Shown here piece by piece: positions 7,185 to 59,470 of a DNA stretch of 59,521 nucleotides. The notes below the pieces were generated by a model. That model did no database searches and was not told where the DNA came from. It was given only the letters and a program-made list of their open reading frames with translations. Each line of letters begins with the position of its first letter. Positions within the stretch are counted from its first letter, which is position 1. The position numbers and the translations under genes were made by a program. This DNA comes from an uncultured Lachnospiraceae bacterium. Lineage in GTDB: Bacteria > Bacillota > Clostridia > Christensenellales > UBA1242. The DNA lies in the NCBI GenBank assembly GCA_964457935.1, contig CAYWFC010000002.1, positions 1 to 59,521 of the forward strand. The letters run 5' to 3'.

Positions 7185-8069
<885 letters not shown>

Positions 8070-40021: not shown

Positions 40022-40753
40022 ATGAGATATGTGATGAGAGTGTCCTATGTGGGCACAGCATACAATGGCTTTCAGATACAGCCACAAGGCGACACCATAG
40101 CAGGGGAATTAAATCGAAGCCTGAGCGTAATACTGCGCTGTGACGTCAGCGTGACGGCTAGCGGACGCACTGACGCCGGTGTGCACGCTCTGGGTCAAGT
40201 GGTGCATTTCGACGCGCCAGAGTGCGATAGCGCTAGACTAGTCCGTAGTATGAATGGGCTTTTGCCAGCGGACATACGAGTGCTGTCGTGCGAGCAGTGC
40301 GACATACACGCACGCTATGACGCTAAGCGCAAAACTTATAAATATATGTTTTATCTCGCCGATGAGGAACTGCCTATGTGTCGCGACCGCATGCTACGCG
40401 TAGACCGCGCGGTAAATGTAGATGCGATGAGTGAGTGCTGTCAGATGCTGGTGGGGACGCACGATTTTCGCAATTTCTGCGCCAGCGGTAGCCAAGCCAC
40501 TACGTTCGATAGGACTATATATGAATGTCGCATTGACCACGTGAGGAGAGAGAGTTTTGGAGACTTTTATGCGCTCAGCGTGACGGGAGACGGATTCTTG
40601 TACAAAATGGTGCGAAACATCATGGGGCTACTGCTCGCAGTCGGGCAGGGCAAGGTGGATATGGCGCTATTTGCTGAGCGCGCATTCGGCGACGCCAAGG
40701 TCACCACGCCTGCACCTGCGCATGGACTGTATCTGTATGACGTGGAATATTAA
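40022..40753 (+). CDS. truA: tRNA pseudouridine(38-40) synthase
   Basis: GRTDAGVHALGQVVHF catalytic Asp motif. GDGFLYKMVRNIMG. Confidence 0.9.
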   Translation: MRYVMRVSYVGTAYNGFQIQPQGDTIAGELNRSLSVILRCDVSVTASGRTDAGVHALGQVVHFDAPECDSARLVRSMNGLLPADIRVLSCEQCDIHARYDAKRKTYKYMFYLADEELPMCRDRMLRVDRAVNVDAMSECCQMLVGTHDFRNFCASGSQATTFDRTIYECRIDHVRRESFGDFYALSVTGDGFLYKMVRNIMGLLLAVGQGKVDMALFAERAFGDAKVTTPAPAHGLYLYDVEY

Positions 40754-40780
40754 AATTTTGTATAAATTTGGCTAAAACAC

Positions 40781-40935
40781 TTGACAGTAGGACGGAAATA
40801 AGGTATTATATCAGACGATTGATGTAAATATCTTGCTTTACTATCCACACAGCCCAAAGCAAGTGTTTAATATAATCCATATGTTCGGAGTTTTCTGGCG
40901 GAGACTCGCGACAGACATTTGATAAGGAGAGAATT
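40781..40935 (+). promoter_or_regulatory. rplM-rpsI promoter plus ~120-nt structured leader (possible L13 autoregulatory leader)
   Basis: TTGACA (40781-40786)-17 nt-TATTAT (40804-40809). The leader contains hairpin CTTGCTTT...AAAGCAAG (40832-40863). L13 leaders are known in Firmicutes, but identity was not verified. Confidence 0.35.
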
Positions 40936-41376
40936 ATGAAAACATACATGGCTAAACCCGCTACTGTAGAGAAGAAATGGTATGTCATCGACGGCGCTAA
41001 TCAGCCTCTAGGCAGAGTCGCTAGCGAAGTAGCACACATTTTGCGTGGCAAGCACAAGACTACATTTACCCCTAACGTAGACTGCGGAGACAATGTTATT
41101 GTTATAAATAGCGACAAATTGGTGTTGACTGGCAATAAGTTGACACAAAAATACTTCAAGAGATACAGCGGATACACTGCTGGCTTGAAGGAAATACAGT
41201 ACAAGAAAATGATGGAAGAACAATCTGACGTAGCACTACTTCGTGCAGTGAAGGGTATGCTACCAAAGAATAGCCTAGGTAGACAGATGGCTACACATTG
41301 CCTGATCTACAAGGGCGCTGAGCATCCACATGACGCTCAAAAGCCAGAAGTTTGGACTATCAAAGGAGATAAGTAA
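40936..41376 (+). CDS. rplM: 50S ribosomal protein L13
   Basis: [40 protein letters not shown]. Confidence 0.95.
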
Positions 41377-41879
41377 TGGAAGAAGTAGAAGTAAAGAAGA
41401 CTAGAGCCCCTAGAGCGAAGAAAGTAGCCGAAGAGACAGTAGTAGAAGAAAAGGTGGCTAAGAAGCCTACAGCGAAGAAAGCTAAAGGCAAAGCATCTGA
41501 GTACCTAGGCACTGGCAAGAGAAAATGCAGTGTGGCTAGAGTGCGCCTCACTGTCGGCACTGGCAAATTCGTCGTAAACGGCAAGAATGTAGAAGATTAT
41601 TTCAAACTACCTACATTGGTCATCGTGGCTAAACAGCCATTGGTATTGACTGGCCTAGAGAATCAAGTAGACATCAGTGTCAACGTATATGGCGGTGGCT
41701 TCACTGGTCAGGCAGGCGCTGTGAGACATGGCGTGACTCGCGCATTGATGGAGTACAATGAGAACCTACGCGCTGAACTGAAGAAAGCAGGCTTCGTCAC
41801 TCGTGACAGTCGTGTCAAAGAGAGAAAGAAGTATGGCTTGAAGAAAGCTAGAAAAGCACCACAATTCAGTAAGAGATAA
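41376..41879 (+). CDS. rpsI: 30S ribosomal protein S9 with ~37-aa Lys/Glu-rich N-terminal extension
   Basis: [14 protein letters not shown] core and C-terminal [23 protein letters not shown] overlap with rplM. Confidence 0.9.
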
Positions 41880-42493: not shown

Positions 42494-42688
42494 AATATTC
42501 TCCTTGTGAGATAAATGTTATACCGATATTTTGTGTGATATTGTGTGAATTATTCGAATAATAATGGAGAATATTGTCGAAAAGTATTTTTTCGCACATT
42601 TTGCATTAATATTTGTCCAAATATTTGACTTAATTTGACATATGAATTATTATTAGTGCATAAAAGGAATACTCTAGGGAGCGAAAAT

Positions 42689-43114
42689 ATGAAATCTTTA
42701 GTATTAAAATATCTCTCTATTACACTATGTATAGCATCTATCATAGTTCTTTTTTTGGATCAGTACGTATCAATATATGGTGCGTATAGGGCCACGTTCA
42801 CATTATGGGATATTGATTATTCTTATGGTCTAGTAGCGATGATATTGGCTGTCACGACTGAGGTAGTAGTAGTATTTATGTCTATCATTGAGTTTTTTGA
42901 CATAACGACAGACGGCAAAGGTCTGAACAAAGTGTATGCAGCGATGCACTACATAGCTATCTTGGGTATATTACTGTCTGTCGCTACACTGGTGTGGCAG
43001 ATAGCAGTGGCCACGCAATACGGCTTGCATTTGAAGCTTTACGCTATCATAATGTTCTTGTGCTCGCTATCGAGTGCGATCTGTACACTCATAGATGCCA
43101 AACTGAGAAAATAA
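42689..43114 (+). CDS. 4-TM membrane protein, paralog A
   Basis: ATG 42689 after GGGAG. MKSLVLKYLSITLCIASIIVLFLDQY... Paralogous to 43218-43646. Confidence 0.6.
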   Translation: MKSLVLKYLSITLCIASIIVLFLDQYVSIYGAYRATFTLWDIDYSYGLVAMILAVTTEVVVVFMSIIEFFDITTDGKGLNKVYAAMHYIAILGILLSVATLVWQIAVATQYGLHLKLYAIIMFLCSLSSAICTLIDAKLRK

Positions 43115-43217
43115 TACGGATATCAAATTTCATCAATTTTTATTAAATATTTGACTTAATTGTTCATATACATTATTATATACTTATCCGTTGAGGAAAT
43201 ATTATAAGGAGGGAAAC

Positions 43218-43646
43218 ATGAAGAAAGTATTGAAGTTTAGTTCTGTGGTATTAGCTGTGGCATCTATCGTAATGATCTTCTTAGATCAGTATTGCGTTAA
43301 AGGTCTAGTTAAAACTTACTACCACAAGCTAGGTTATGAGCCTTATTTGGAATATACTAGCTGGGCTAAATTAGCACAGATCTTCGCTATCATCACTGCA
43401 GTAGCAGTAGGCATTTTGGCAGTATTGGCACTTTTGGAAGCTTTGGATGTCAAAGGCTTGAAGAGCGTATACAAAGTGCTTCATTACATAGCTATCGTAG
43501 TAGCATTGTTGGCTATCGCTACATTTGTATTCCAGTTGATCATGAAGTCAAAAGTTGAATGCTCACTAGCTGCTCCAGCTATCATTATGTTCGTATGTTC
43601 ATTGTTGAGCGCTGGTAGTGTAGTTTTGAGTAAATATACTAAATAA
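43218..43646 (+). CDS. 4-TM membrane protein, paralog B
   Basis: ATG 43218 after AAGGAGGG. MKKVLKFSSVVLAVASIVMIFLDQY... Shares the LDQY, HYIAI and AIIMFxCSL blocks with paralog A. Confidence 0.65.
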   Translation: MKKVLKFSSVVLAVASIVMIFLDQYCVKGLVKTYYHKLGYEPYLEYTSWAKLAQIFAIITAVAVGILAVLALLEALDVKGLKSVYKVLHYIAIVVALLAIATFVFQLIMKSKVECSLAAPAIIMFVCSLLSAGSVVLSKYTK

Positions 43647-46007: not shown

Positions 46008-46151
46008 AATATTTTCTCCTTTATTTGATATGAATATGATAGCACATCTGGTGACTAAATGCAAGTATTTTTTGATATATTCCGAAATGAATGATTTTCA
46101 CACAAAAGGGTGCCAATCTATATAATAATGGTAGAGACACAGGAGTATGAT

Positions 46152-47198
46152 ATGAAGTGCAAATGTAATAAACTTAGACAGCCTAGACCTTATGAGAAGG
46201 TGAAATACGGTCCCATGGGAGCAAGGGGTGCTACCGGTCTGACTGGTCCGACTGGCGCGACAGGCGCTACTGGCGCAACGGGTGCGACGGGACCTACAGG
46301 CGCTACTGGTGTCACTGGTCCTACTGGAGAGGAGATAGCCATAGAGCGTGTGACTACCATAGAGCCGGGTCAGCCAGCGGATGTGAAGTCTAGGAGAGAG
46401 AATAATACTAATTATCTAGAGTTTTTTATACCACGAGGGGCGGACGGACTGTCTGAGAAGATAGTGATAGGCAATATCACCACAGTGGAGTCAAATGAAC
46501 AAGCCACTGTGACGGACAGGTATGACAATGCCACCCACACCATGGACTTTGCTCTGCCTAGGGGAGAGAAAGGCGACAAGGGCGACACGGGACCGAGAGG
46601 ATTCCCCGGGGAGATAGGTATCAGCGAAGTGATCACTATAGACGGCACTGAGACGGTGGAGCCGGATGAGCCAGCCGAGGTGCAAGACGACTTCGATAGG
46701 AATATACATCACTTGACATTTTATATACCGAAAGGGGTAAAAGGAGATAAAGGCGAACGAGGCGAAAAGGGTGAACAAGGCGATGACGGACCACCGGGGC
46801 TGACACCTGACTTTAACGCCACGATATACAATCCTAACGACCAGATGCTAGTCAATCAGACTGCGCTCACTATGGGCGAAGTGGAACTAAATAATGGCTT
46901 CAAGATACAAGACAGTAGTCTGATAGTGCCTACTACAGGGACATTCTTGGTGTCGTTCTCGGTGAATTATTCTGACACAGCGACCAATGGCGACTATGTC
47001 GGCATAGCAGTCAATGATGTGCTGGTGACTTCGTCCAAAAGACCTGTGTGCCAAAATGGCAACTCGAGCGCTACATTCGCGACCTTGCTGAATAAAGATG
47101 ATAAAGTCAATCTGGTAGCTAATGTGTCACAAAACAAAACTCTAAAGTCTGACACAGCCCCTAGCGCCATGCTGTCAGTAATGATGATAGCGTACTAA
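46152..47198 (+). CDS. collagen-like protein with three interleaved beta modules and C1q/BclA-like C-terminal domain
   Basis: ATG 46152 after [42 protein letters not shown], then three modules ending ...F(F/A/Y)(I/L)P(R/K)G followed by G-x-y runs ([41 protein letters not shown]). Confidence 0.75.
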
Positions 47199-47558
47199 AT
47201 GATGACAACATACCGAATGGTAATGATAGTATTCAAAAGTGACCATAGCATATTAATAAACTGAAGGTAGTGACAACATACTAAATATTGATGATAGCAA
47301 AAATATGTGAATAATTAATAAAAAATAAAAATAAAATAATCCTAAAAAAATAAAAAATAATCTCCCAAAAATAGAGAAAAAAAATAAAAAATAATCTCCC
47401 AAAAATAGAGAAAAAATAAAAAATGCAGAAAAAGTAGTAAAAATACGCAAAATTTACTACTTTTTTCATATATTTTTCACATTTTTGAGTATTTTTTATT
47501 TTTCTAAGAATTTTGCTGTGATTTTTTGGCATTTATTTAGTGGCGGTGAGGGAGATAT

Positions 47559-47666
47559 ATTTTGAGACATTGGTAGATTTTTAGACGTTTGCAAATTTTT
47601 AGACATTGGTGCATTTTGAGACGTTAGCAGATTTTGAGGCACTGGTACATTTTGAGACATGGGTAG
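47559..47666 (+). repeat. six 18-bp tandem repeats (ATTTTGAGACATTGGTAG consensus) ~40 bp upstream of the poly-G promoter
   Basis: Units start at 47559, 47577, 47595, 47613, 47631 and 47649. Confidence 0.9.
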
Positions 47667-47705
47667 ACTGAATATAAAAAAATTCGACAAAATGCTCTTT
47701 TTCGC

Positions 47706-47733
47706 TTGACAAGCGGGGGGGGGGTGCTAATCT
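47706..47733 (+). promoter_or_regulatory. promoter of the GT80-like lipoprotein operon with a G10 tract in the spacer
   Basis: TTGACA (47706-47711), spacer containing G10 (47715-47724), extended -10 TGcTAATCT (47725-47733), giving a 16-nt spacer. Confidence 0.6.
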
Positions 47734-47785
47734 ATTAATGACAGTTAGCGGGCTGTCGAATTTCATTTTGACAAAGGAGAAAGTA

Positions 47786-49195
47786 ATGAAAAAGAAAATC
47801 TTGAGTCTAGTACTCATATGTATGTTCTGCTTTCCGTGCATTTTGTTCGCTGGGTGCGGGAAAGGTAAGGGCAAAGGTGGCACTATCAATATCATTATGA
47901 CGAGCGCTACTATTCCGCCTATGGTCTCTATGCTGGACACTATCGGTGATGGCAATGAGACTTATATGTGGGTAGGTCGTCAGAATACTATTTATAGCGT
48001 GGACAATCTAAAAGACGCGTATGGAGATAATTGTTTCTACGAGTCATGGTCCACAGCATCCAATATACCTAGCAATGTAATCAACGCTATGAGCCAAAAG
48101 GTGGCTAATGCTTGGTATAATGATAATAATACAAAATTCAATATTTATGTGACTGACTACGGCATCTTGGCTGGTCTGTATCTAGTGAAGTCTATAGGTG
48201 TAGATGCGTCTCACTACAACATCCACATGGTAGAGGACGGCAGTGGTGCTTATGGACAATTCTATGATACCTTGGGATTGGGCGCTGACGGTGCTAAGGC
48301 TGGATTTGATGCCAAAGTAGCTGAACTAAATGCTGTCATCGCTACTATGGAGAATGGTACTTTTAATAGTGCGCAGGATTTCAGCAACTATGACTACGTA
48401 TATGCTGCTGCTACTCTAGAGAATGTAGATTATTATCTGCAGTATCCTGAGATGCTGACATCAGAAGATGCGCAGCTGCAGGCTATGATAACTAATAATA
48501 CTATCAAACTGGTCAAGAAACATCAGACTCAGATGTATCAGAGTTTGTCTAGTGAGAACAAAGCGAAATTCAAAAGCATCATATTGAACCCAGCATTGGA
48601 TACTGCTATGACACCTGCTACCGGCAAGTCTGGCGTACTAATGATCACTGGTACATCGTTTACTGGCGAAGGTAATGACTTGACTGCTAGCACATTCACT
48701 AATGGTGAAGGTTGCAGATTCGAGCAATATGTGAACTACTTAGTAGACAAATACGGCGACGATTATACTATAGTATACAAAGGTCATCCATCTTGGGGAC
48801 TACTCGACAATGAAGTAACTTCTTCTAGATGGTACGACGAGAGCAGATTGGGTGGACTGAGTTTAGAGCAAGGACAGGCAGCCGCTGCTAGGAGAAAAAC
48901 ATTCTTGGAGAGCAAAGGTGTGACTATATTGCCTGCACAGACTCCTGCTGAGGCATTCATCTGGGCATACAGCGACGTATTGGCGCTATGCGGATATGAC
49001 AGCTCGCTATATTTCAATGCTCCACAAGGCAAAGTATTGTGCATATTGGCTGACGAAGAGATAGGCAGTAATGACCCTTATGCGACTGAATTGGGTAGCC
49101 TAAATCAGATGCTATTCAAAGAGGGCGGTCAGCTATACAATGCTGATATGTATTTCTTAGACTTGGACTACATCAGTGCTAACCCTGTGGTGTAA
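47786..49195 (+). CDS. lipoprotein homologous to GT80 (PmST1 / Photobacterium-type) sialyltransferases
   Basis: ATG 47786 after AAAGGAGA. Lipobox ILFAGC. Aligns by eye to P. multocida PmST1 blocks: HMVEDGSGAYG (D/E-D/E-G motif), LMITGTSFTGEGN (cf FIFTGTTTWEGN), YTIVYKGHPSWG (HP motif, cf YKIYFKGHPRGG), ILPAQTPAEAF (cf IPANISFEVL), CGYDSSLYFNAP (cf GGVASSLYFSLP). Confidence 0.7.
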   Translation: MKKKILSLVLICMFCFPCILFAGCGKGKGKGGTINIIMTSATIPPMVSMLDTIGDGNETYMWVGRQNTIYSVDNLKDAYGDNCFYESWSTASNIPSNVINAMSQKVANAWYNDNNTKFNIYVTDYGILAGLYLVKSIGVDASHYNIHMVEDGSGAYGQFYDTLGLGADGAKAGFDAKVAELNAVIATMENGTFNSAQDFSNYDYVYAAATLENVDYYLQYPEMLTSEDAQLQAMITNNTIKLVKKHQTQMYQSLSSENKAKFKSIILNPALDTAMTPATGKSGVLMITGTSFTGEGNDLTASTFTNGEGCRFEQYVNYLVDKYGDDYTIVYKGHPSWGLLDNEVTSSRWYDESRLGGLSLEQGQAAAARRKTFLESKGVTILPAQTPAEAFIWAYSDVLALCGYDSSLYFNAPQGKVLCILADEEIGSNDPYATELGSLNQMLFKEGGQLYNADMYFLDLDYISANPVV

Positions 49196-49213: not shown

Positions 49214-50437
49214 ATGGGCAAGATTTTGAAGGCTTATAAGAAAGGAGAATGGATATGTCTAGTATCCATTCTTCTTCAGATAATAGGCATAATGATTATC
49301 AATGTGAAGCATGTGCAGAGTGGTATGGGAGTATTTAGCTATCGTGTGATCAATCTCATATCCATATATGTGCTATTGGGCTACATCGCTATAGAGGTGG
49401 GGCTCAAGGTGTATAACTTGGTCACTGGCATCAAGGCGGAGGGCGCAGGCTATGCTAAAAGTAATTGGGTGAAGATTGCTGTGGAGTTTGGCTTGATTTT
49501 GGCTGTAGTGGTGTGCGCTATCATAGGTGTGCTAAAGTACGGCAGTGCCAGAAAAAACTACAATCTCGACTACAATACGACTAATTTTTATTTCGCTATG
49601 GCGTTCTTTGGCGTGATGTTATACATTTTGGCGAAGAATGTGAAGCAAGGCTTCTGGGCTAACAGCATGTATGCAGTGGCTATCATACCTATCGTATTTT
49701 TGGTCATGGCGGGAGTACAGTTGAGCGACTATATGGCGTCTATGGCGTTTAACGCGTATGCGCTTTTGGCGTATTTGGCGATGTTTGCAGGTATTTTGAT
49801 TTTCGTATTCGGCAAGTACGCTAATTTCGCGTCGGCTGGGTTGTATCTCATCGGGAGTGTGCTGATGATAGCGTGTGGCATACTGGGTGGAAAATACAAC
49901 TTCCTGAATGTAGATATGTTTTATTGGGCAAAACTGGCTGAGATCATCAGTGTGGCGCTAATTTTGTTCTTTGCGTGTACTATGTTTGCTACGCAATTTT
50001 ATAGGGTGACGAAGGATAATCACAAACGCATATTGCCGTCGCTGGTGTTGTTCGGCGTGGCAGTGGTGCTGGCAGTGGTCACCGCGCTCGTGCTGGTGAA
50101 GGTGGATGCGCGCACTCCGGCGCAAATGCACAGGCTGGACAAATGCTACATAATGCTACTCATCTGCTCGTGCATTAATTTGGTGGCAGTGCATTTTAGA
50201 GATGGGTTTAGACTGGAGAATATCGTGATGTCGGCTTCTCTTTTGGTGGCGGTCGTGGTGTTTACCATACTGCTACTCATCAAGAGCAAAGTGGCAAGTT
50301 TCTCTGTGTTTTATAAATTTTCTATCATATCGACATCTGTAATGTTAGGCTTCGTCGTGCTGTCGGGCGTGGAATGGCTGATAAGAACGCGCCATGCTAG
50401 GACAGTAATAGCCACTGATGATACTTCTGCCATGTAG
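49214..50437 (+). CDS. polytopic membrane protein (407 aa, ~11-12 TM), function unknown
   Basis: Starts 18 nt after the GT80-like gene, probably in the same operon. Hydrophobic throughout. Confidence 0.65.
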   Translation: MGKILKAYKKGEWICLVSILLQIIGIMIINVKHVQSGMGVFSYRVINLISIYVLLGYIAIEVGLKVYNLVTGIKAEGAGYAKSNWVKIAVEFGLILAVVVCAIIGVLKYGSARKNYNLDYNTTNFYFAMAFFGVMLYILAKNVKQGFWANSMYAVAIIPIVFLVMAGVQLSDYMASMAFNAYALLAYLAMFAGILIFVFGKYANFASAGLYLIGSVLMIACGILGGKYNFLNVDMFYWAKLAEIISVALILFFACTMFATQFYRVTKDNHKRILPSLVLFGVAVVLAVVTALVLVKVDARTPAQMHRLDKCYIMLLICSCINLVAVHFRDGFRLENIVMSASLLVAVVVFTILLLIKSKVASFSVFYKFSIISTSVMLGFVVLSGVEWLIRTRHARTVIATDDTSAM

Positions 50438-50538: not shown

Positions 50539-51198
50539 TTACTTATCTGTCCAATATTTGCGGACTTTTTCGAAATGCGTAATACGCTTTTCGATTTTAC
50601 TTATCTCTTTTGGGTAGAAAAAATTCAGTTTTTCACATAGTTTTAACATCCATTCTTTACGAGATTGATTGCTATCTATGTTAATTATTCGAGAATTAGT
50701 GATTTGGATTTGACCCCAACCTAATGCGCCGATAGAGAGACAATCCCATTTCAGATGTTCGATAGGGATTAGACGCACCGCATCGAATGACATTTTATTA
50801 TCTATTACTTTATATTCTGCTAGTAGTATTACAAAATAATTCTTATCATTTTTATAGAATTTGGACAATTTTTCTACAGAAGTCAAATTTGGCATGTTAA
50901 ACTTAGTGTCACGATTGTGGGTTTTAATATCGATGGCGAAATAATTGTCATCATTATCCATAAAAGATATATCTTCAAGCGCTCTGCGACCGAAATTGGC
51001 ATCGAAGTTTTTGGCCAATCCGGAAGGGAAACAAGTATGTATTTTTTCTTCTAGAATATTTTGCGTAATATCTCCGACTGCACGCGGATGAGTGAAAATG
51101 CGTTCATTTTCGAAATCGGGAATAGAATTTAATAAATTTAGTATATTATTTTCAATAATTTTTTGTATATTTTCTTCAAATATTTTGGGTTTATTCAC
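50539..51198 (-). CDS. Type II restriction endonuclease candidate (PD-(D/E)xK-like), specificity unknown
   Basis: Immediately downstream of the methyltransferase. GTG 51198 is preceded by AGGAG plus 7 nt and overlaps the MTase stop by 8 nt. Candidate catalytic LEDISF...FAIDIKTH (D-x13-D-x-K). The ORF-track long form to 51357 would overlap the MTase by 167 nt. Confidence 0.55.
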   Translation of the reverse strand: MNKPKIFEENIQKIIENNILNLLNSIPDFENERIFTHPRAVGDITQNILEEKIHTCFPSGLAKNFDANFGRRALEDISFMDNDDNYFAIDIKTHNRDTKFNMPNLTSVEKLSKFYKNDKNYFVILLAEYKVIDNKMSFDAVRLIPIEHLKWDCLSIGALGWGQIQITNSRIINIDSNQSRKEWMLKLCEKLNFFYPKEISKIEKRITHFEKVRKYWTDK

Positions 51199-52135
51199 CT
51201 TTTTTCTCCTTTTTCTGCTCGGATAAGGAATTTCTCTCCCAAAAAACGCCATTTGTATAACCTTGTATTGTTTTGTCATAATCGGCTCGTTCCAATCTAT
51301 ATTCTGCCCATGCGCAATACAGAGGATTTTGCTCAATGCCAATGTAATGACGACCAAGTTTTTTGGCTACGACAGATGTGGTGCCCGAGCCAAGGAATGG
51401 GTCTAAGATTACGTCACCTGCATTGCTACTGGCTAATATTATTTTGGCTAGTAATTTTTCTGGCTTTTGGGTAGGGTGTGCGGTGTTTTCAGGCATGGAC
51501 CAGTACGGTATAGAGATGTCATCCCAAAAGTTAGATGGATAAGTATTGCGATAGTTGCCATTATCAGTCTCTTCCCAATCTTTTGGTTTGCCATCGATTT
51601 TGTATGGTGCAATGACTTTGCGTCGACATTTTACGCTATCTACATTGAAAGTGTAGTTTTTTGATACAGTCGCAAACCAAATATCCTCCATGGCGTTTTT
51701 CCAATTTGTCAAAGCACCGCGACCTTTTTCTCTCTGCCATGTGATGCGATTGACTACATTGAAATATTGATTTAGAACACTGCCTATCAGCAAACTAGAC
51801 TGCCAATCGCAACAGACATATATAGATGCAGTGGGCTTTAGTAACGGAATGACTTTTTTTATCCAATTTTCGGTGTATTTAACATAATCTGTTTCGTTTA
51901 ATTTTGAAAATTTCATTCCATGAAAGTTTTTGTCTAGGTTGTAGCAAGGGTCAGCAATAATTAAGTCGACACTCTTGGCAGGCAAATAATTTAACACTTG
52001 CATAGAATCACCGAGTATTGTTTTATCCAACAACGGCTCAATGGGACTCGCAGTGTCTAATGTAATACATTTGTCAGCATATTTTTTTCCTTCTTTGAGA
52101 GAAAAATCAATAGTTTTGTTTTTAGGGGACTTCAT
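51191..52135 (-). CDS. beta-class DNA methyltransferase (N6-adenine or N4-cytosine)
   Basis: Motif IV-like IIADPCYNL near the N-terminus, HPTQKPEKLL, and motif I DPFLGSGTT near the C-terminus. This order is the beta-class permutation. Confidence 0.85.
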   Translation of the reverse strand: MKSPKNKTIDFSLKEGKKYADKCITLDTASPIEPLLDKTILGDSMQVLNYLPAKSVDLIIADPCYNLDKNFHGMKFSKLNETDYVKYTENWIKKVIPLLKPTASIYVCCDWQSSLLIGSVLNQYFNVVNRITWQREKGRGALTNWKNAMEDIWFATVSKNYTFNVDSVKCRRKVIAPYKIDGKPKDWEETDNGNYRNTYPSNFWDDISIPYWSMPENTAHPTQKPEKLLAKIILASSNAGDVILDPFLGSGTTSVVAKKLGRHYIGIEQNPLYCAWAEYRLERADYDKTIQGYTNGVFWERNSLSEQKKEKKGE

Positions 52136-52269
52136 ATGTTTAACCTCGTGCTTTTATTTTTATGATTATAACATATTTATGGATTTTTTTCAACTGGTAT
52201 TTGACTTTTGAGAAGATTTATATACTTTATGCTGACGGTGGTGTTTTGCATATGCTGTGATTATATTTG

Positions 52270-52653
52270 TTATAAATTACGCATTTCTTCAAAAAGATTA
52301 TGTTGAAACGAAGACATTATATAATAATCTTCTATTAAAGAGTTGTCTTGGCTGATACCCAATGCCACAAGAATATAAGGATATACAGTGTATGACATAT
52401 ATTGGTCAATACTACCCAAACTAGATGGAATGCATTTACAATTTTTATTCAAAACATCTGTATCGTTTATCAGGTAATATTTGATATTTTTAATATCATC
52501 ATCAATACAATTTTCCATTAGTTCTGAATTTAATAAATCAGAGTCAGATTCTTGCCCTGTCAATAACAAAGCAAATTTTTTCCTGTCAATCTCTTTTGCT
52601 TTGTATTTTGTCAGCAAAACACTTATAAATTTATTCGCATCAATTTTATCCAT
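52270..52653 (-). CDS. hypothetical protein (127 aa)
   Basis: AT-rich island ORF. RBS GGAG (from TAGGAGTTTC) a few nt upstream of ATG 52653. No motif recognised. Confidence 0.5.
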   Translation of the reverse strand: MDKIDANKFISVLLTKYKAKEIDRKKFALLLTGQESDSDLLNSELMENCIDDDIKNIKYYLINDTDVLNKNCKCIPSSLGSIDQYMSYTVYPYILVALGISQDNSLIEDYYIMSSFQHNLFEEMRNL

Positions 52654-52662
52654 ATGAAACTC

Positions 52663-52923
52663 CTACGCGACAGGACAACAATAAAATGCAAGGGCATTTG
52701 TAATGATTGTTTCAAACTTTATTGAAATCGCACTAGAACCATAATTTATACCTATATCTTCAGTCTCTGCCGTCATTTCAACGACTGAATCTTTTGAAAT
52801 ACTAAAAATACCATCAGCCGTGGATGACACAGTGGTTAAAAAATAAATGTTAAATCCAAGACTTGCCATACTAACAATTATTGTAAATGAAAATAAAATA
52901 GTGAGAATAAGTATCTTTTTCAT
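52663..52923 (-). CDS. small signal-anchored protein (86 aa), leaderless candidate
   Basis: MKKILILTILFSFTIIVSMASLGF. On the minus strand TTGACA(52962-52957)-16 nt-TATAAT(52940-52935) ends 11 nt before the ATG. No SD. Confidence 0.45.
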   Translation of the reverse strand: MKKILILTILFSFTIIVSMASLGFNIYFLTTVSSTADGIFSISKDSVVEMTAETEDIGINYGSSAISIKFETIITNALAFYCCPVA

Positions 52924-53075
52924 GATTAGTTTTAATTATAACACAAAATTTTAGGATGTCAACATAAAAATAAAAAATATCTCCAATATTCTATTTGAAA
53001 TACGTTTACTTAATTTTTGTATAAAAATCACTCCTTAATAAAATTTTGCCAATTTATCGTAGGAGTGCTGTTAAT

Positions 53076-53318
53076 TTAATCTAAATTTAACTCATCACTT
53101 TCAAAAATAGGGTTATCAAAAAATTCGGAAACAGTTATTCCCAATGTTCTAATGATAATAATCAAAGTTTTTACATTACAACTTTCTCTTCTTGCATTCA
53201 TAATATCCATCATAGTTGCGTGTGAAATTCCAGAGTTTATTTCTAATCTATATTGAGTAATATTTTTTTCTTTTAATAATTCTCGTATTCTCATTGATAT
53301 TGCTTTGCTTACTTTCAT
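53076..53318 (-). CDS. XRE-family HTH regulator (80 aa), divergent from the nucleotide cassette
   Basis: MRIRELLKEKNITQYRLEINSGISHATMMDI...IRTLGITVSEFF. RBS GGGAG. Paralog of 1079-1321. Confidence 0.8.
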   Translation of the reverse strand: MKVSKAISMRIRELLKEKNITQYRLEINSGISHATMMDIMNARRESCNVKTLIIIIRTLGITVSEFFDNPIFESDELNLD

Positions 53319-53363
53319 AACAATTCTCCCAATAAGTATATTTTAGCATACTGTCGGTTTTGC

Positions 53364-53437
53364 AATAAGTATGCAAATGCGACAATTTTCTTGATTTTAT
53401 TATTTTCTTTTGATATAATAAGTATGCAAAAACGACA
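53364..53437 (+). promoter_or_regulatory. promoter of the SLOG gene flanked and overlapped by two 21-nt direct-repeat operators
   Basis: AATAAGTATGCAAATGCGACA (53364-53384) and AATAAGTATGCAAAAACGACA (53417-53437). TTGATT (53391-53396)-17 nt-TATAAT (53414-53419). A degenerate third half-site AATAAGTATA lies at 53331-53340. Confidence 0.65.
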
Positions 53438-53452
53438 TAAGGGATATTTGAT

Positions 53453-54007
53453 ATGATTTTTAGAAAGAAAATACAAGAATTGAAAATAGATTGTGAAACG
53501 GGGTTTGAAATATTGAAAAATACAACTCTTTGTTTTACTGGTCATCGCATTCAGAAACTTCCTTGGGGAGAAAATGAAGAAGATGAGAGATGTGTTGGGA
53601 TGAAAAAGAAATTGAAAGCAAAGATTATTGAAGCAATTAAAAAAGGCTACATTTATTTCATTTCAGGTATGGCACTAGGTTTTGATATAATCTCTGCCGA
53701 AATGATATTAGAGTTAAAAAAGGAATATCCACATATTAAACTAATTGGTGCTATTCCGTGTAAAGACCAATATAAAGTTTGGAAATCATATCAAATTAAA
53801 CGATATAAGAATGTTTTGTCTAAATGTGATAGCGTTCGGTGCTTGTATGACACTTATAACGACAAGTGTATGCTTGAACGAAACGACTATATGTTAAATA
53901 ATTCATCACTTGTGATTGCATTATACGATGGTAAGGGTGGTGGAACTGGCTATACAATTAAAAAAGCAAAAGAGAAAAGTCTGAAAGTTGAAATAATTAA
54001 ACCTTAG
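53453..54007 (+). CDS. SLOG-superfamily protein of the YpsA/DUF1273 type
   Basis: CFTGHR..., ISGMALGFDIISAE, IPCKDQYKVW, ERNDYMLNNSSLVIALYDGKGGGTGYTI match the DUF1273 pattern (GHR / G-x-A-x-G-x-D / RN..M / GGT). Confidence 0.7.
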   Translation: MIFRKKIQELKIDCETGFEILKNTTLCFTGHRIQKLPWGENEEDERCVGMKKKLKAKIIEAIKKGYIYFISGMALGFDIISAEMILELKKEYPHIKLIGAIPCKDQYKVWKSYQIKRYKNVLSKCDSVRCLYDTYNDKCMLERNDYMLNNSSLVIALYDGKGGGTGYTIKKAKEKSLKVEIIKP

Positions 54008-54093
54008 ACTAGGATAAATAAATTTCAAAAATTTGTTTGTGCATTTATTTGAGATATACATAAGGCTATTTGATATAAGGCTGTCCCCATATA

Positions 54094-54122
54094 TTGATGT
54101 TTTGATCATTTTGTGTTATAAT
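54094..54122 (+). promoter_or_regulatory. internal promoter ahead of the Gmk-like gene
   Basis: TTGATG (54094-54099)-17 nt-TATAAT (54117-54122) with TGT immediately upstream of the -10. Confidence 0.55.
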
Positions 54123-54154
54123 ATGTAAAATCGATGATTTAAAGGAGATATAAT

Positions 54155-54763
54155 ATGAATATTCCAATTATTATTTCTGGACCAAGTGGCGTGGGAAAGG
54201 ATACTTTAGTAAAATCAATAACAAGTACTTATCCTGAAATAAAGGAAGCAGTTGGTTATACAACAAGAAAACCAAGAGAGAACGAGGTAGATGGCGTTGA
54301 CCTAAACTTTGTGTCCAAAGATTATTTTCGATACTTGATTGACCATGACATGTTGATAGAATACGCGATTTTTAATAATGAATTTTATGGTATGCCAAAG
54401 ACAGAATTGACTAAATTAAAAGATCAAAAAATGATATACAATATTGGGGTGTCTGGTGCAAGGACAATTAAAGAGTTAATCCCCGAGTCAATTGCTATTT
54501 TGTTGATTCCCCCATCTTATGATGAATTGGTATATCGTTTGGGAAATAGGGGGAAAGAAAGATTAAAAAACATGGCATCAGATTTAAAAGAGGCATCAAG
54601 CTTTTTCGACTATTGTTTAGTGTCGAAAATGGACAAGGTTGGTGAACTTGTTGAAAATTTTAAAGATATTTTATGTGGACATGGTGAAGAATATAGGATT
54701 GAAAATTATTTTAATCAAATTAAAGATATAACACATATCGATGAAAATGAACGTGTGATGTAA
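54155..54763 (+). CDS. guanylate kinase-family P-loop kinase (accessory copy, atypical P-loop GKDT)
   Basis: IIISGPSGVGKDTL, GYTTRKPRENEVDGVDLNFVS, EYAIFNNEFYGMPK, LLIPPSYDELVYRLGNRG align with Gmk blocks. RBS AAAGGAGA. Own promoter at 54094-54122. Confidence 0.75.
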   Translation: MNIPIIISGPSGVGKDTLVKSITSTYPEIKEAVGYTTRKPRENEVDGVDLNFVSKDYFRYLIDHDMLIEYAIFNNEFYGMPKTELTKLKDQKMIYNIGVSGARTIKELIPESIAILLIPPSYDELVYRLGNRGKERLKNMASDLKEASSFFDYCLVSKMDKVGELVENFKDILCGHGEEYRIENYFNQIKDITHIDENERVM

Positions 54764-54788
54764 AATAAAAATATTTAGCGAGGAAAAG

Positions 54789-55727
54789 ATGAGATTGATT
54801 AAAGTTGATTTTAAAGATGTGAATTTGATTCAATCTATTAACAATTTTTTAAATTTAATATCTAGCGTTGATGTTAAGCAAACACCGGAATGGTTTATAG
54901 CTAGAGAAGAATGTGGATTTGCTATTTGCTTTGCAGAAGATAAAGGAATTATTGGCTATTGCAATGTGTTTATTAATGAGAATGAGGCTTATTTGCCGAG
55001 AGGTCCGGTCACAGTCGCTAATATGTTTGATGTGTGTTTAGATTCTTTATGTGATTATATAAAAAGTTTAGGATATTCTAAAATGCGATTAAATCCTAAA
55101 ATACAAGAAAAGTTAAAAACTGATAGAAATATTAATTGTTGTGATAAAAACGATTTTAGTAAGTTGAGAGAATCGTATAGAGAAGCTATTGTAGAATTAA
55201 AAAACAAATCGGAAAATGATTTGTTGTATGAGTTTAGCAGTTCTACAAGATATCATATTAGAAAAGCTTTAAACAATAATTTGATTATCAATCTAAGTGA
55301 AATTTGTGATTTAGATGATTTTTATTCAATTTATGAAGAAACTGCAATACGTCATAATTTTATACCACATAATAAACAATATTTTGAAAATCTGATAAAG
55401 GCTTTTAAAGAGAAAATATATTTTTGTAAAATAAGTTATAACAACGAAGTTGTTGCAATGAGTTTGAATATTTTACAAGGTGATACTGTTCATTACTTGT
55501 ATGGTGCGAGTTCATCTCAAAACAACAAACTTTATGCAGCGTACTTAATGCATTGGGTAATGATTAAGTATGCACTCAACAATGGTTTTAAATTTTATAA
55601 TTTTGGGGGTGTTTTTGCGAAAGATAATGAGGTTGATAGCAAGGATTACGGTTTATTACGATTTAAATCGGGATTTTGCAAAGGTGGCTTTATTGAATAT
55701 GAGCCTGATATGATTATTTTACTATAG
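54789..55727 (+). CDS. FemAB/FemX-family aminoacyl-tRNA-dependent aminoacyltransferase-like protein (312 aa, no coiled-coil insert)
   Basis: TRYHIRKALNNNLIIN...DDFYSIYEETAIRHNFIPHNKQYFENL and HYLYGASSSQNNKLYAAYLMHWVMIKYALNNGFKFYNFGGV...YGLLRFKSGF match FemAB-family (PF02388-type) blocks as I remember them. Confidence 0.65.
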   Translation: MRLIKVDFKDVNLIQSINNFLNLISSVDVKQTPEWFIAREECGFAICFAEDKGIIGYCNVFINENEAYLPRGPVTVANMFDVCLDSLCDYIKSLGYSKMRLNPKIQEKLKTDRNINCCDKNDFSKLRESYREAIVELKNKSENDLLYEFSSSTRYHIRKALNNNLIINLSEICDLDDFYSIYEETAIRHNFIPHNKQYFENLIKAFKEKIYFCKISYNNEVVAMSLNILQGDTVHYLYGASSSQNNKLYAAYLMHWVMIKYALNNGFKFYNFGGVFAKDNEVDSKDYGLLRFKSGFCKGGFIEYEPDMIILL

Positions 55728-55736
55728 GAGAAAGTT

Positions 55737-56279
55737 ATGAAAAATATATGTTTGTTAAATGAAAGATTAAAATCAAAAAATGGAGTTGTAAAATTTACAT
55801 ATGATAAATATTGGGATGCTATTAATGCTATATGCGAGGATATAAAGGAGAAAATAAAAACCGGAGAATATAAAGATATAGCATTGGTCGGTATGGCTAG
55901 GGGAGCATTGCCGATGTTGGTGTCTGTTTCTCATGAAATTGGCGTAAGGAAAGTGTCAATGATACAACTGCAGATGAGCAATTCCGATAACCCACATGAT
56001 TATGGAAAAGTGAAACTAATAAATAAATTTATTGATAAAGATGTTAAAAAATGTATTCTTCTTGAAGATATTATATACAAAGGACAAACTACTGGAGAGG
56101 CTATTAAAATACTAAAAGCTGAGGGGATTAAGGTGGAAAGCATATATTCGTTAATAGTGGATGAAGGATATGGCAAAATAGACAACAAACCAATAGATGT
56201 TGATATAAATTATGCATATTCGCTGAAAGCAGATGAGTGGGTAAACTTTTTGTGGGAAAAAGATTTAAGAAAGGAGTAG
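55737..56279 (+). CDS. type I phosphoribosyltransferase, Gpt (xanthine-guanine PRT)-like
   Basis: IALVGMARGALPMLVSVSHEIGVRKVSMIQLQ (cf Gpt [30 protein letters not shown]). PRPP loop KCILLEDIIYKGQTT. C-terminal DEWVNFLWEKD (cf Gpt TWIEQPWD). Confidence 0.65.
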   Translation: MKNICLLNERLKSKNGVVKFTYDKYWDAINAICEDIKEKIKTGEYKDIALVGMARGALPMLVSVSHEIGVRKVSMIQLQMSNSDNPHDYGKVKLINKFIDKDVKKCILLEDIIYKGQTTGEAIKILKAEGIKVESIYSLIVDEGYGKIDNKPIDVDINYAYSLKADEWVNFLWEKDLRKE

Positions 56280-56281
56280 AA

Positions 56282-57112
56282 ATGAAACAAAGTGGTTATA
56301 ATTTGTTATTTGAATTAACACAAAGATGTAATTTAAATTGTGAATATTGTTTCTATAGAGATTATGGACGTAGTCCATCGGAATTAAACTTTGGTCAATT
56401 TCAAGGAATTATTGACAAATATGAAAACATAAAAAATATTTATTTTACTGGTGGTGAATGCACTCTAGCTACTGATTTTGTTAGTATAATACGATTGGCA
56501 AAGATGCGTGCTAATGTTGCGATTTTTACTAATGGGTTAACAATTACAAATGATGAGTTTTATAATGATATAGATGAATATATCGATAACTATATTGTTA
56601 CATTTGATAATTTTAGCAGTGATTATAAATGTAGGTTGAATACAGATTCAACTATGGAAACGATTAAAAAAATCGCAAAGAACTCCCCAAATAAGTTGAT
56701 TGTTAAGATTTGTATCAATAAATACAATCTATCAAATTTAGAATTAACGATACAAGAATTAATTGCACTGGGAGTAAAAAAGATTTCAATTAATTTTGTG
56801 CATAACATTCAATCGAATAACATAAATTTTGAGTTGAGTAAAAATGAGTTGGAAGAAGTTTTTCACACTTTGGATAAGTATAAAAGTCATCTCTTTATTA
56901 ACTTTTATGATATGATAAAAAATTTTTATCTTAATGGAGATCGTTCTGTGGAAAGATATTGTCGTGCTGGGAAGTCCTTTTATTATTATGATTGCCAAGC
57001 GAACAAGAAGGATTGCCCCGCAGAATATTGTGAAGATAGGAACTGTTTAACAAAAGAATGTATTAGTATATTTGAAATGTTTGAGGAGAATGATGATGAA
57101 TATAGTGTTTGA
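56282..57112 (+). CDS. radical SAM enzyme with C-terminal Cys-rich twitch/SPASM-like extension
   Basis: ATG 56282 after AAGGAG. CNLNCEYC (CX3CX2C), FTGGECTL (GGE SAM motif). Tail CRAGKSFYYYDCQANKKDCPAEYCEDRNCLTKEC begins with the C-x-A-G signature of SPASM/twitch domains. Confidence 0.8.
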   Translation: MKQSGYNLLFELTQRCNLNCEYCFYRDYGRSPSELNFGQFQGIIDKYENIKNIYFTGGECTLATDFVSIIRLAKMRANVAIFTNGLTITNDEFYNDIDEYIDNYIVTFDNFSSDYKCRLNTDSTMETIKKIAKNSPNKLIVKICINKYNLSNLELTIQELIALGVKKISINFVHNIQSNNINFELSKNELEEVFHTLDKYKSHLFINFYDMIKNFYLNGDRSVERYCRAGKSFYYYDCQANKKDCPAEYCEDRNCLTKECISIFEMFEENDDEYSV

Positions 57113-57737
57113 AGGGATAAATGGTGCCGGTAAAACCACTATTATTAAAAAATTAGTGGAAATAATGAAAGATGCTGGTTTAAATGTTTATCAAATAGAT
57201 GAAATTAATGAGATGTCTCCCTTAAGTTCAGTATTATCAGAAATGTATAAGACCGATACATTTTTAAGAATGAAAAAAAGTTTTAACACAGTAATTACTG
57301 AATCCTTAATTCTTGCTGCAGATTATCATTTTTTACAAGAAGCCACAAAAAATTTACAAGGTTACAAAATATTCGATAGAGATATAATTACTCAAATTGT
57401 TTATCAAAAGTATTTTTTGGCTTCACTTTATGGAGATAATAATAGTTTTTTTGAGAATTGGGAAAAGTGCATAAAATTCAATATGAAAAAAATAGACTTG
57501 ATTGTGTATATTGATGTGCCAGATGAAGTTGGCTTGGAAAGAACGATACAAAGAGATGGTGCAACCTTTTATGAATCAGATATAAAAATTATGAGGGAAT
57601 TGCATAAATTGCAAAAACAATACGCCATAAAGTTTTGTGAAGAAAATTCTATTCCACTTATATTAATTGATGGAACAAAAAGAATAGATAAAAATGCGGA
57701 TTTCTTATATTCAAAAATAAAGGGAATAGAGTGTTAA
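57096..57737 (+). CDS. thymidylate kinase-family (dTMP/CMPK2-like) nucleotide kinase
   Basis: NIVFEGINGAGKTT P-loop, LILAADYHF, IFDRDIITQIVYQ (DR motif), DLIVYIDVPDEVGLERT lid region. GAGGAG RBS 57083-57088. Overlaps the radical SAM stop by 17 nt (start could be 57090, 57093 or 57096). Confidence 0.75.
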   Translation: MNIVFEGINGAGKTTIIKKLVEIMKDAGLNVYQIDEINEMSPLSSVLSEMYKTDTFLRMKKSFNTVITESLILAADYHFLQEATKNLQGYKIFDRDIITQIVYQKYFLASLYGDNNSFFENWEKCIKFNMKKIDLIVYIDVPDEVGLERTIQRDGATFYESDIKIMRELHKLQKQYAIKFCEENSIPLILIDGTKRIDKNADFLYSKIKGIEC

Positions 57738-57740
57738 ACT

Positions 57741-58212
57741 ATGATTTATATTGATTTTGATGGTGTGTTTGTTGACACATGGCCGTTGATATGTAGTATT
57801 ACAAAGAAGTTAATAATAGTGATCTAATAGAAGAGGAAAAACTGAAAAATTCATTTGCAGAACTTGATTGGGAGTTTGTATTGAATAACAGTTATCAGAA
57901 TAAACAAAACATTCAAATTTTGCAAAACTTAAGCGACGATGTTATTTCTAGTAAGATAAAAATATTAACAAAAGTAAATTCAAAAGAAGAAAAAAACAAA
58001 AGGAATTATTTCTAAAGAACAATAATATAAAAATAAAAATGTTCGCTGAGACTTTTGAGAGATTTAGGGCAGATGCAGTCGATCCTATGAATAACATTTT
58101 AATAGATGATGAAATAAAGAATTTAGATGAGTGGGAAAAGAAGGGCGGAAAGCCTATTTTATATAATAAAAATGATAATAATCGCGACTCTGCTGGGGGT
58201 GTAATATTTTAA
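57741..58212 (+). pseudogene. HAD-superfamily phosphatase (NT5C-like 5'(3')-deoxyribonucleotidase type) interrupted by two frameshifts
   Basis: Frame 1: MIYIDFDGVFVDTW (DxDG motif I), stop at 57825. Reading continues in another frame (YKEVNNSDLIEEEKLKNSFAELDW...ILTKVNSKEEK). After an A7 run (57990-57996) it continues in a third frame (...NNILIDDEIKNLDEWEKKGGKPILY, motif IV), stop at 58210-58212. Confidence 0.6.
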
Positions 58213-58262
58213 GTATAAAACAATACCAAGCTTGTCTGATAAAATTTTAAGGTAAAAAACTT

Positions 58263-58291
58263 TTGACATAAAATAGTTCTTGTGTTATACT
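58263..58291 (+). promoter_or_regulatory. promoter ahead of the Ham1-Nudix genes
   Basis: TTGACA (58263-58268)-17 nt-TATACT (58286-58291), TGT upstream of the -10. Confidence 0.6.
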
Positions 58292-58310
58292 AAACTTAGT
58301 GGAGGAGAGT

Positions 58311-58871
58311 ATGAAAGATTTAATTTATGTGACAGGAAACAAATATAAGATTTTTACTGCGAGGAAATTTTTAGAACCATATGGTATTAATGTGATAGGT
58401 AAAAAGATTTATTGTCCAGAAATACAAGAGGATTCAATTGAAGAGGTCGCTAAGTTTTCCGCTGAATATGCCAGCAAAGCATTGGGGTGTGCTGTTTTAA
58501 AAAATGATATGGGTTTAGTTATTCCAGCATTAAATGGATTTCCTTCTGCCTATACTCATTATGTTGAAGATACTCTTGGTGAGGATGGTATTTTAAAATT
58601 GATGGAAGGGGAAAAGAATAGAGAGGCTTATTTTTTGGAATGTTTGGCTTATGCCGAACCGGGCAAAGAAACAAAGATCTTTATTTCTAAAACAGAAGGT
58701 ACACTTGATTTTGAAAAAAGCGGAGATTATGGATGGAGTTGGGATAGAATTTTTATTCCTAAAGGACAAACTTCTACTATGGCAAATTTTAATGACGATG
58801 AGAGAGCTTCGTTTTGGTCTGAGGATGGGTACATTGATTTAAAAAATTTTATTATGCATGAAGATAAATGA
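58311..58871 (+). CDS. Ham1/RdgB (ITPase)-family non-canonical NTP pyrophosphatase-like protein
   Basis: ATG 58311 after GGAGGAG. IYVTGNKYK, PEIQEDSIEE, NDMGLVIPALNGFPSAY, REAYFLECLAY, WSWDRIFIP align with RdgB/Ham1 blocks (TGN.gK, EiqE, DDsGL.v.aLnG.PG, R.A.f, GYDPIF). Confidence 0.7.
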   Translation: MKDLIYVTGNKYKIFTARKFLEPYGINVIGKKIYCPEIQEDSIEEVAKFSAEYASKALGCAVLKNDMGLVIPALNGFPSAYTHYVEDTLGEDGILKLMEGEKNREAYFLECLAYAEPGKETKIFISKTEGTLDFEKSGDYGWSWDRIFIPKGQTSTMANFNDDERASFWSEDGYIDLKNFIMHEDK

Positions 58872-58890
58872 AATAATGAGGTGGGAAAGA

Positions 58891-59439: not shown

Positions 59440-59470
59440 TGAATTAACCATATTCTTAATAGAGGTAAAA

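Follow-up and report, generated by a model that had tools for sequence, protein, structure and literature searches.

How does a glycosyltransferase that seems built to handle a nucleotide sugar operate on the outside of a cell, and which donor would it find there? The question is raised by a gene (47786-49195, forward strand) in a stretch of 59,521 nucleotides from an uncultured Lachnospiraceae bacterium (contig CAYWFC010000002.1 of GenBank assembly GCA_964457935.1), which we refer to as the window. The encoded protein is a distant relative of the GT80 sialyltransferases, such as PmST1 (PM0188). Nucleotide-sugar-dependent glycosyltransferases of the GT-B fold are expected in the cytoplasm, or in a closed compartment supplied by a transporter. 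The family studied here is instead an exported one, with lipid-anchored, S-layer-anchored and dockerin-borne members, which nevertheless keeps the catalytic residues of GT80 together with those that hold cytidine monophosphate (CMP). There is nothing unusual in the homology as such; the mechanistic puzzle is that so large a group of Leloir-type enzymes is exported and has an intact CMP site.

The relationship to GT80 does not emerge from pairwise comparisons, as a phmmer search of the Protein Data Bank (PDB) with the single sequence yields E-values of 0.6-1.1, which are not significant. A profile built from 18 close homologs retrieves the GT80 entry 4r9v, from Photobacterium damselae, at an E-value of 6e-4, and a profile of the wider family, made from 75 representatives, matches GT80 entries only, at E-values from 3e-22 to 6e-11 and across the whole GT-B domain. 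The analysis of the predicted structure is in agreement: the AlphaFold model built on the alignment of the 18 homologs (pLDDT 85.7, pTM 0.84), when compared by Foldseek, has GT80 enzymes as its top 23 matches, with E-values from 5e-14 to 3e-8 and TM-scores of 0.61-0.69 on the target, followed by a GT38 polysialyltransferase (E-value 8e-6) and then by generic GT-B enzymes. The identity in the structural alignments to GT80 enzymes is of 15-17% only. The homology is thus established by the two profiles and by the structural search with the model, and not by pairwise statistics, so that we regard the protein as a true but distant relative of GT80, for which homology is established and formal membership is not.

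Family models give a more diffuse picture. The Pfam model PM0188 matches only 4 of the 18 close homologs at E ≤1; in the wider family 13 of the 75 representatives match it at E ≤1e-3, the best at 1.5e-10, and nine match the polysialyltransferase model A-2_8-polyST (PF07388). No model in Pfam (2025 copy) or NCBIfam (2026) covers the window protein, the NCBIfam scan returning only a spurious match to DcrB (16 bits, for a cut-off of 221). At the level of individual motifs, an earlier note on this DNA had proposed five pairings with PmST1 by eye, and HMMER reproduces all of them. Four are obtained against PmST1 itself, namely LMITGTSFTGEGN with FIFTGTTTWEGN, YKGHP with FKGHP, ILPAQTPAEA with IPANISFEVL and GYDSSLYF with GVASSLYF, whereas the EDG motif (EDGSGAY) pairs with YDDGSSEY of the Photobacterium enzyme, through the 18-homolog profile.

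GT80 enzymes are defined by the motifs YDDGS, FKGHP and SS, to which base and acid roles are assigned, and by a glutamate that holds O2 and O3 of the ribose (PMC7540698). The corresponding residues of the window protein, including the catalytic Asp and the His of the HP motif, are all present (Table 1). Among the 18 close homologs D151, E295, K332, H334, P335, E389 and S406/S407 are invariant or nearly so, with D151 strictly invariant. The conservation extends to the wider family, for which all counts refer to 75 divergent representatives out of 472. Here D151 is found in 68 sequences and G152 in all 75, K332 in 73, H334 and P335 in 74 each, and E389 in 65, with aspartate in seven others; S406 occurs in 63 and S407 in 61, the latter being threonine in 12 more. 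E295 is the exception, as only 34 of the 75 retain it, and the first acidic position of the D/E-D/E-G motif is mostly serine or threonine. Also, a set of invariant residues, R65, T68, D124 and Y156, is specific to the family. Two positions that we take to be involved in acceptor binding or sialidase activity in PmST1, W270 and R313, the latter being presumably the one tied to sialidase activity, are occupied by G294 and S336, and both vary across the family. Overall, the residue pattern fits an active enzyme that would still bind the nucleotide phosphate and would handle the sugar or the acceptor in another way.

The protein also carries the signs of export. Its reading frame is preceded by a ribosome-binding site (Table 1), while a longer alternative frame, starting at 47738, has none, and the homologs all begin at MKK. 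The N-terminus reads MKKK-ILSLVLICMFCFPCI-LFAG-C24, followed by GKGKGKGG, with a hydrophobic stretch of 17 residues that accounts for the only peak in the hydropathy scan (residues 5-23). A charged n-region, an h-region and a lipobox cysteine within the first ~40 residues are therefore all found, at least 90% of the 18 close homologs share Cys24, and the linker behind it is disordered in the AlphaFold model. The window encodes the signal peptidase LspA (TIGR00077; 104.5 bits, cut-off 73.95); Lgt was not seen among the window genes. Clearly, the signal peptide, the lipobox, the conservation of the cysteine and the presence of LspA make the assignment as a lipoprotein sound, in line with what the earlier note had read from the lipobox, and the GT80-like protein is predicted to be exported and lipid-tethered, with its catalytic part outside the membrane.

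What had looked like a lone oddity turns out to be one member of a large, unnamed exported family. An exhaustive profile search gathered 472 cluster representatives at 50% identity, 361 of them at E ≤1e-10. A signal-like N-terminal segment is found in 66 of the 75 representatives and a lipobox-like motif in 39, most of the others looking like fragments. The additional domains are in all cases extracellular modules, such as SLH (five members), Flg_new (four), cadherin-like (three) and dockerin type I (one). In the source databases the members are called 'hypothetical protein' or 'S-layer homology domain-containing protein', without any functional name; those named after the S-layer include an SLH-bearing protein from a named isolate, Paenibacillus sp. 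E194 (WP_044356537.1), and one from an Oscillospiraceae metagenome-assembled genome (MAG). The close homologs, drawn from genome collections, come from MAGs of uncultured Clostridia or Firmicutes, save for one labelled uncultured Staphylococcaceae. As judged from these sequences, the family appears Firmicute-wide and secreted or surface-anchored throughout. In the literature on GT80, PM0188 and lipoboxes in Gram-positive bacteria we found no description of it. Two members (P0028, 1017 residues, and P0057, 1311 residues) contain the K-x-H-P and GGY/GY-SS motifs twice each and hence two complete GT80-like domains, which suggests that such secreted polypeptides may be tandem enzymes with two specificities.

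Directly downstream of the GT80-like gene lies a gene for a polytopic membrane protein of twelve predicted helices (Table 1), hereafter the partner, whose start is separated from the preceding stop codon by only 18 nt. Considering the 16 informative close loci, i.e. those whose sequence extends past the gene, a polytopic protein of 348-418 residues occupies this position in 15, even as the surrounding genes differ between loci; the exception (L003) has only an open reading frame (ORF) of 169 residues there. The short gap and this recurrence amid different neighbourhoods indicate that the two genes are very probably co-transcribed, as the earlier note had supposed. The pairing is real for the close subfamily and is not required by the fold. 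As to its position, in one lineage (loci L002, L017 and L018) the two-gene module sits between rpoA-rplQ and ecfA-ecfA-ecfT-truA, and in the window it is found a few kb downstream of truA-rplM-rpsI (40022-41879), likewise near the supercluster of ribosomal and energy-coupling factor (ECF) genes, at a different site.

The partner diverges fast, with identities of 15-31%, and alignments leave only R44, Y109 and N124 as conserved residues, all three in the first two outside loops. Its AlphaFold model is poor (pLDDT 49.7) and returns nothing from Foldseek at E ≤1e-3, and word-indexed searches for relatives recovered a single protein besides the query. The best Pfam resemblance is to 7TMR-DISM_7TM, at 24 bits for a cut-off of 29 and over residues 210-381 only, with a weak match of this kind in three of eight partners. 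Pairs of genes for a lipoprotein and a polytopic protein are typical of binding-protein-dependent systems and, taken together with this resemblance, they would suit a non-catalytic lipoprotein whose two-lobed fold binds a ligand and reports to the partner, or feeds it, as part of a receptor or transporter. We consider this very unlikely. A catalytic Asp and a K-x-H-P motif that hardly vary over 75 divergent members mark an enzyme; the partner lacks an output domain, and its Pfam match is below threshold; and many relatives bear SLH or dockerin modules instead of being paired with a membrane protein. Nor does the partner qualify as a 7TMR-DISM receptor in its own right, as the 7TMR-DISM_7TM domain is sub-threshold, the loops are all short and there is no additional domain, neither an extracellular DISMED domain nor a cytoplasmic output domain.

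The next element to be considered is the supply of donor. Among the window ORFs scanned there are no neuA, neuB or neuC genes, no nan genes and no sialic-acid transport genes, so that the absence of neuA/neuB-type genes stated in the earlier note holds for these ORFs. Neither neu nor nan genes occur in the neighbourhoods examined for close and distant relatives, and a dedicated sialic-acid locus was dropped as an explanation on these grounds. In GT80, trans-sialidase activity is a reversible transfer, in which a sialoside and CMP give a transient CMP-N-acetylneuraminic acid (CMP-Neu5Ac) (PMC7540698). The reading that we favour, with somewhat less than even confidence, is that of a catalytically competent GT-B enzyme on the outer face of the membrane, acting as a CMP-binding ulosonic-acid transferase or as a trans-glycosidase by reverse transfer. 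Its ligand would be CMP itself or the CMP conjugate of a 2-keto-3-deoxy (ulosonic) sugar, for instance a sialic acid, and the enzyme would carry this sugar from one surface glycan to another. In the reverse-transfer mode, bound CMP would take the sugar off an existing glycoside, transiently making a CMP-sugar, and the sugar would then be passed to a new acceptor in a trans-glycosylation, or to water, with CMP acting as a retained cofactor. It is this mode that we favour, because there are no activation genes at the examined loci and no reliable pool of nucleotide sugars outside the cell. The partner would probably position the enzyme or present a membrane-bound acceptor.

A number of observations weigh against this reading. 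As a single sequence, the protein scores 17.3 bits against Pfam PM0188 (PF11477), below the cut-off of 25, and the replacement of the residues equivalent to W270 and R313 implies that its handling of substrates differs from that of the characterised enzymes. For these two reasons what we describe is a sister family of GT80 rather than a demonstrated member; of the GT80 assignment made earlier, the homology stands, on the profiles, the Foldseek matches and the catalytic residues, and the formal membership does not. The presence of a Paenibacillus protein in the wider family makes a strict specificity for sialic acid doubtful family-wide. The neighbourhoods of the relatives are housekeeping or heterogeneous, comprising ribosomal and ECF genes, enolase, GH13, GH77, TagF-like and PLD genes, and do not suggest any particular pathway. 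No membrane partner lies downstream of the gene in distant family members, and the partners of one sub-lineage (P0018-P0020) are not demonstrably homologous to that of the window, the hmmsearch being not significant and hhalign giving a probability of 12%; the role given to the partner is consequently a guess. Also, we know of no enzyme that retains CMP as an extracellular cofactor.

The partner brings in a second possibility, which is that of a classical Leloir transferase placed outside the membrane and capping a surface glycan, with its CMP-sugar either exported through the partner, in a Golgi-like manner, or scavenged from the host or from lysed cells. The set of donor-binding and catalytic residues is indeed complete and conserved, enzyme and polytopic protein are closely conserved as a pair among the close relatives, and gonococci are reported to use host CMP-Neu5Ac (PMC4668040). 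We nevertheless judge it unlikely: distant relatives are extracytoplasmic and yet have no partner, the fast evolution of the partner, with three conserved residues in its outside loops, is unlike that of a specific transporter, and genes for CMP-sugar synthesis are found at none of the examined loci. In addition, Neisseria Lst, which is the best-known precedent for a sialyltransferase at the surface, has since been assigned a cytoplasmic location (PMC8092323).

A third scenario keeps the fold and changes the donor, which would be membrane-bound and monophosphate-linked, such as a polyprenyl-phosphate sugar delivered through or beside the partner, or else the reaction would be a phosphodiester-linked transfer on polymers of the teichoic-acid type. 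CMP-sugars and polyprenyl-phosphate sugars are both diesters of a sugar-1-monophosphate, transfer reactions outside the membrane usually draw on lipid-linked donors, and the polytopic partner has its conserved residues facing outwards. Moreover, one distant relative (L022) adjoins two TagF-type genes, and the housekeeping context would fit a role in maintenance of the envelope. However, the ribose-binding Glu, with the frequencies given above, points to a nucleotide and not to a lipid, Pfam detects no GT-C, Wzx or Wzy signatures in the partner, and to our knowledge there is no precedent for a GT-B enzyme that uses polyprenyl-phosphate donors. We thus hold this scenario to be rather improbable.

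The modular architecture of the wider family raises yet another possibility. Besides the dockerin, some members carry a PL4 fn3_3 domain, CarboxypepD_reg or Big_3, modules that are typical of secreted carbohydrate-active enzymes, and GT80 enzymes have sialidase and CMP-Neu5Ac hydrolase as side activities (PMC7540698 and PDB entry names). The protein could in this way be a degradative enzyme, derived from the GT80 scaffold and acting as a sialidase, as a glycosidase for some other ulosonic acid or as a hydrolase of CMP-sugars, and would serve the nutritional release of sugars from host or dietary glycans. A direct hydrolase, however, would have no reason to retain the ribose-binding Glu and the phosphate-binding SS, genes for uptake or catabolism of sialic acid are found at none of the examined loci, and the close subfamily resides among housekeeping genes and not in glycan-utilisation loci. 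The arginine equivalent to R313, presumably linked to sialidase activity, is not kept either. This alternative is accordingly a doubtful one, for which we see little likelihood.

Besides the coding region, the sequence upstream of the gene may be relevant to the favoured reading of a surface glycan-transferring enzyme, inasmuch as it may provide a way of switching expression on and off. A promoter-like element, TTGACA-AGC-G10-TGC-TAATCT, contains a run of ten G residues inside its 16-nt spacer (Table 1); its -10 hexamer is weak and was missed by a consensus scan. The window has two matches to TTGAC-N5-10-G7, where none is expected; apart from these G10 and G9 tracts, the 59.5 kb contain no run of seven or more G, and the second one has an identical layout in front of an ankyrin-repeat gene. 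Five homologous loci (L006, L008, L009, L010 and L011) have the same arrangement upstream of the GT80-like gene, with G7 to G9 tracts, interrupted in L008, between TTGACA or TTGACT and TATAAT-like boxes, and their encoded homologs are 32-63% identical. A homopolymer in the promoter spacer is the classic arrangement for phase variation by slipped-strand mispairing. These results suggest that the poly-G tract is a candidate switch of this type, whose position is conserved across species, although no polymorphism in its length was seen. Further upstream in the same intergenic region, two repeat arrays were noted (47559-47667 and 47344-47424), one in which an 18-nt unit (ATTTTGAGACATTGGTAG; 71% matches) is repeated six times in tandem and the other with 2.5 copies of an A-rich unit of 34 nt (95% matches), which could be binding sites for a regulator or a minisatellite.

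Comparison with known systems helps in placing the family. The GT80 enzymes (PmST1/PM0188 and the α-2,3 and α-2,6 sialyltransferases of Photobacterium) have the same GT-B fold and give the best structural and profile matches, and share with the window protein three motifs (D/E-D-G-S, K-G-H-P and SS) as well as the Glu that binds the ribose. They differ in being about 80 residues shorter, the window protein having an insertion of ~25-40 residues after the HP motif, and in belonging to Pasteurellaceae and Vibrionaceae and not to a Clostridia-type Firmicute, in which the protein is paired with a membrane protein and has no neu genes nearby. Characterised GT80 enzymes presumably carry an N-terminal signal or lipobox themselves, removed for expression and crystallography; if so, the puzzle of donor access may apply to GT80 as a whole. 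GT38 polysialyltransferases (PF07388; PDB 5wcn) share the GT-B fold and the D/E-D/E-G and HP motifs, but the similarity is much weaker than to GT80 (TM-scores of 0.40-0.47). They polymerise capsules in the cytoplasm, and their genes lie in capsule clusters.

Two further systems resemble the family in concept only. Neisseria Lst, of family GT52, has been proposed as a surface-exposed sialyltransferase that uses host CMP-Neu5Ac and so would also act without an endogenous supply, although it belongs to another CAZy family and is not among the top 50 structural matches; it is not known to have a lipobox. It was rejected as a precedent for a surface location, given that its localisation is disputed. 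GH33 trans-sialidases, of the Trypanosoma cruzi type or intramolecular as in gut Firmicutes, would possibly reach the same outcome, an extracellular transfer of sialic acid without nucleotide sugars, were the favoured mechanism true. They do so with an unrelated β-propeller fold and a covalent Tyr intermediate, and no sequence or structural similarity to them was found here.

As for the rest of the window, it is chromosomal and contains housekeeping genes of anaerobic Firmicutes (PFOR, trigger factor, ClpP/ClpX and truA-rplM-rpsI). The earlier note had envisaged a spore-former in which the enzyme might decorate the spore surface. A gene with collagen triple-helix repeats and a weak match to the C-terminal, TNF-like part of BclA does lie just upstream (Table 1), but it is missing at the other loci, so that a link to the GT80-like gene was rejected; the hints of an exosporium or spore are limited to the collagen/BclA-like proteins, a DUF11/collagen-binding-type surface protein and a weak Gate-domain match, and the proposal found no further support.

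Other regions of the window deserve a brief mention. Just 3' of the two-gene module, an N6/N4 DNA methylase (PF01555) that overlaps the start of an ORF of 272 residues without Pfam match (50539-52135, reverse strand) likely forms with it a type II restriction-modification pair. It stands beside a segment (52000-59521) in which the G+C content drops from about 0.42 to 0.28-0.30 and which encodes a series of proteins of nucleotide-metabolism type (YpsA/SLOG, guanylate kinase, FemAB-like, phosphoribosyltransferase, radical SAM, dNK/thymidylate-kinase-like, Ham1 and NUDIX); this segment looks like a horizontally acquired island, possibly with a role in nucleotide modification or defence. An ORF of 2929 residues (11385-20174) followed by one of 740 residues (20602-22824), both on the forward strand, gave no match to Pfam or NCBIfam at the thresholds used, and two adjacent paralogous genes on the same strand (42635-43114 and 43191-43646) encode small membrane proteins of 159 and 151 residues without family match.

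Table 1. Features of the GT80-like gene, its product and the surrounding window (residues numbered in the window protein).
Feature	Position (strand)	Remarks
Promoter-like element TTGACA-AGC-G10-TGC-TAATCT	47706..47733 (+)	read from sequence
10-G homopolymer	47715-47724 (+)	inside the 16-nt spacer
Ribosome-binding site AAGGAG	47774-47779 (+)	6 nt 5' of ATG; read from sequence
GT80-like gene	47786-49195 (+)	ATG to stop; 469 residues
Lipoprotein signal peptide, residues 1-24	47786..47857 (+)	MKKK, hydrophobic core, lipobox L-F-A-G-C24
Gly/Lys-rich flexible tether GKGKGKG	47858..47878 (+)	follows the lipidated Cys; residues 20-30 pLDDT <50 in the model
N-terminal Rossmann-like (acceptor-side) domain of the GT-B fold	47879..48622 (+)	model secondary structure
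GRQNT (R65, T68) and VTDYG (D124) motifs		within the N-terminal domain
E150-D151-G152-S153 motif	48233-48244 (+)	aligned to YDDGS of GT80
D151		PmST1 D141, catalytic base; aligns with the second Asp of YDDGS
C-terminal nucleotide-binding domain of the GT-B fold	48623..49195 (+)	HMMER alignments to PmST1
ITGTS..GE motif (G289, T290, E295)		within the C-terminal domain
E295		PmST1 E271, conserved in GT80
K332-G-H334-P335	48779-48790 (+)	PmST1 K309-G-H311-P312; HP motif, catalytic acid
E389	48950-48952 (+)	PmST1 E338, binds ribose O2/O3
S406-S407	49001-49006 (+)	PmST1 S355/S356, phosphate contact
Partner	49214..50437 (+)	407 residues; 12 predicted transmembrane helices, N- and C-termini inside (hydropathy, positive-inside)
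BclA-like gene with collagen triple-helix repeats	46110-47198 (+)	weak BclA C-terminal/TNF-like match; just upstream
Second collagen-triple-helix-repeat protein	7185-8069 (-)
DUF11/collagen-binding-type surface protein	6261-7025 (-)
Second G run (G9)	2423-2431	element 2408-2437; identical layout upstream of ankyrin-repeat gene 2465-3667
LspA (signal peptidase II)	25320-25787	TIGR00077

We therefore view these proteins as a family that is sister to GT80 and that operates outside the cytoplasm. GT80 enzymes are the workhorses of the chemoenzymatic synthesis of sialosides, and relatives as divergent as these could be a source of catalysts with other specificities. In a broader and unlikely version of our proposal, these Leloir-type GT-B homologs of sialyltransferases would form a class, not recognised so far, of Gram-positive enzymes that remodel glycans outside the cell and work without a supply of nucleotide sugars: CMP would stay bound as a cofactor while sugars resembling sialic acid are shuttled from glycans of the host or the environment to the bacterium's own surface or, in the lipoprotein subfamily, the donor would come directly from the adjacent twelve-helix membrane protein in a Golgi-like manner, expression being phase-variable by means of the poly-G tract. 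The family could reveal a new route by which gut Clostridia acquire or rearrange sialic-acid-like sugars at their surface, which bears on immune evasion and on the foraging of mucin.

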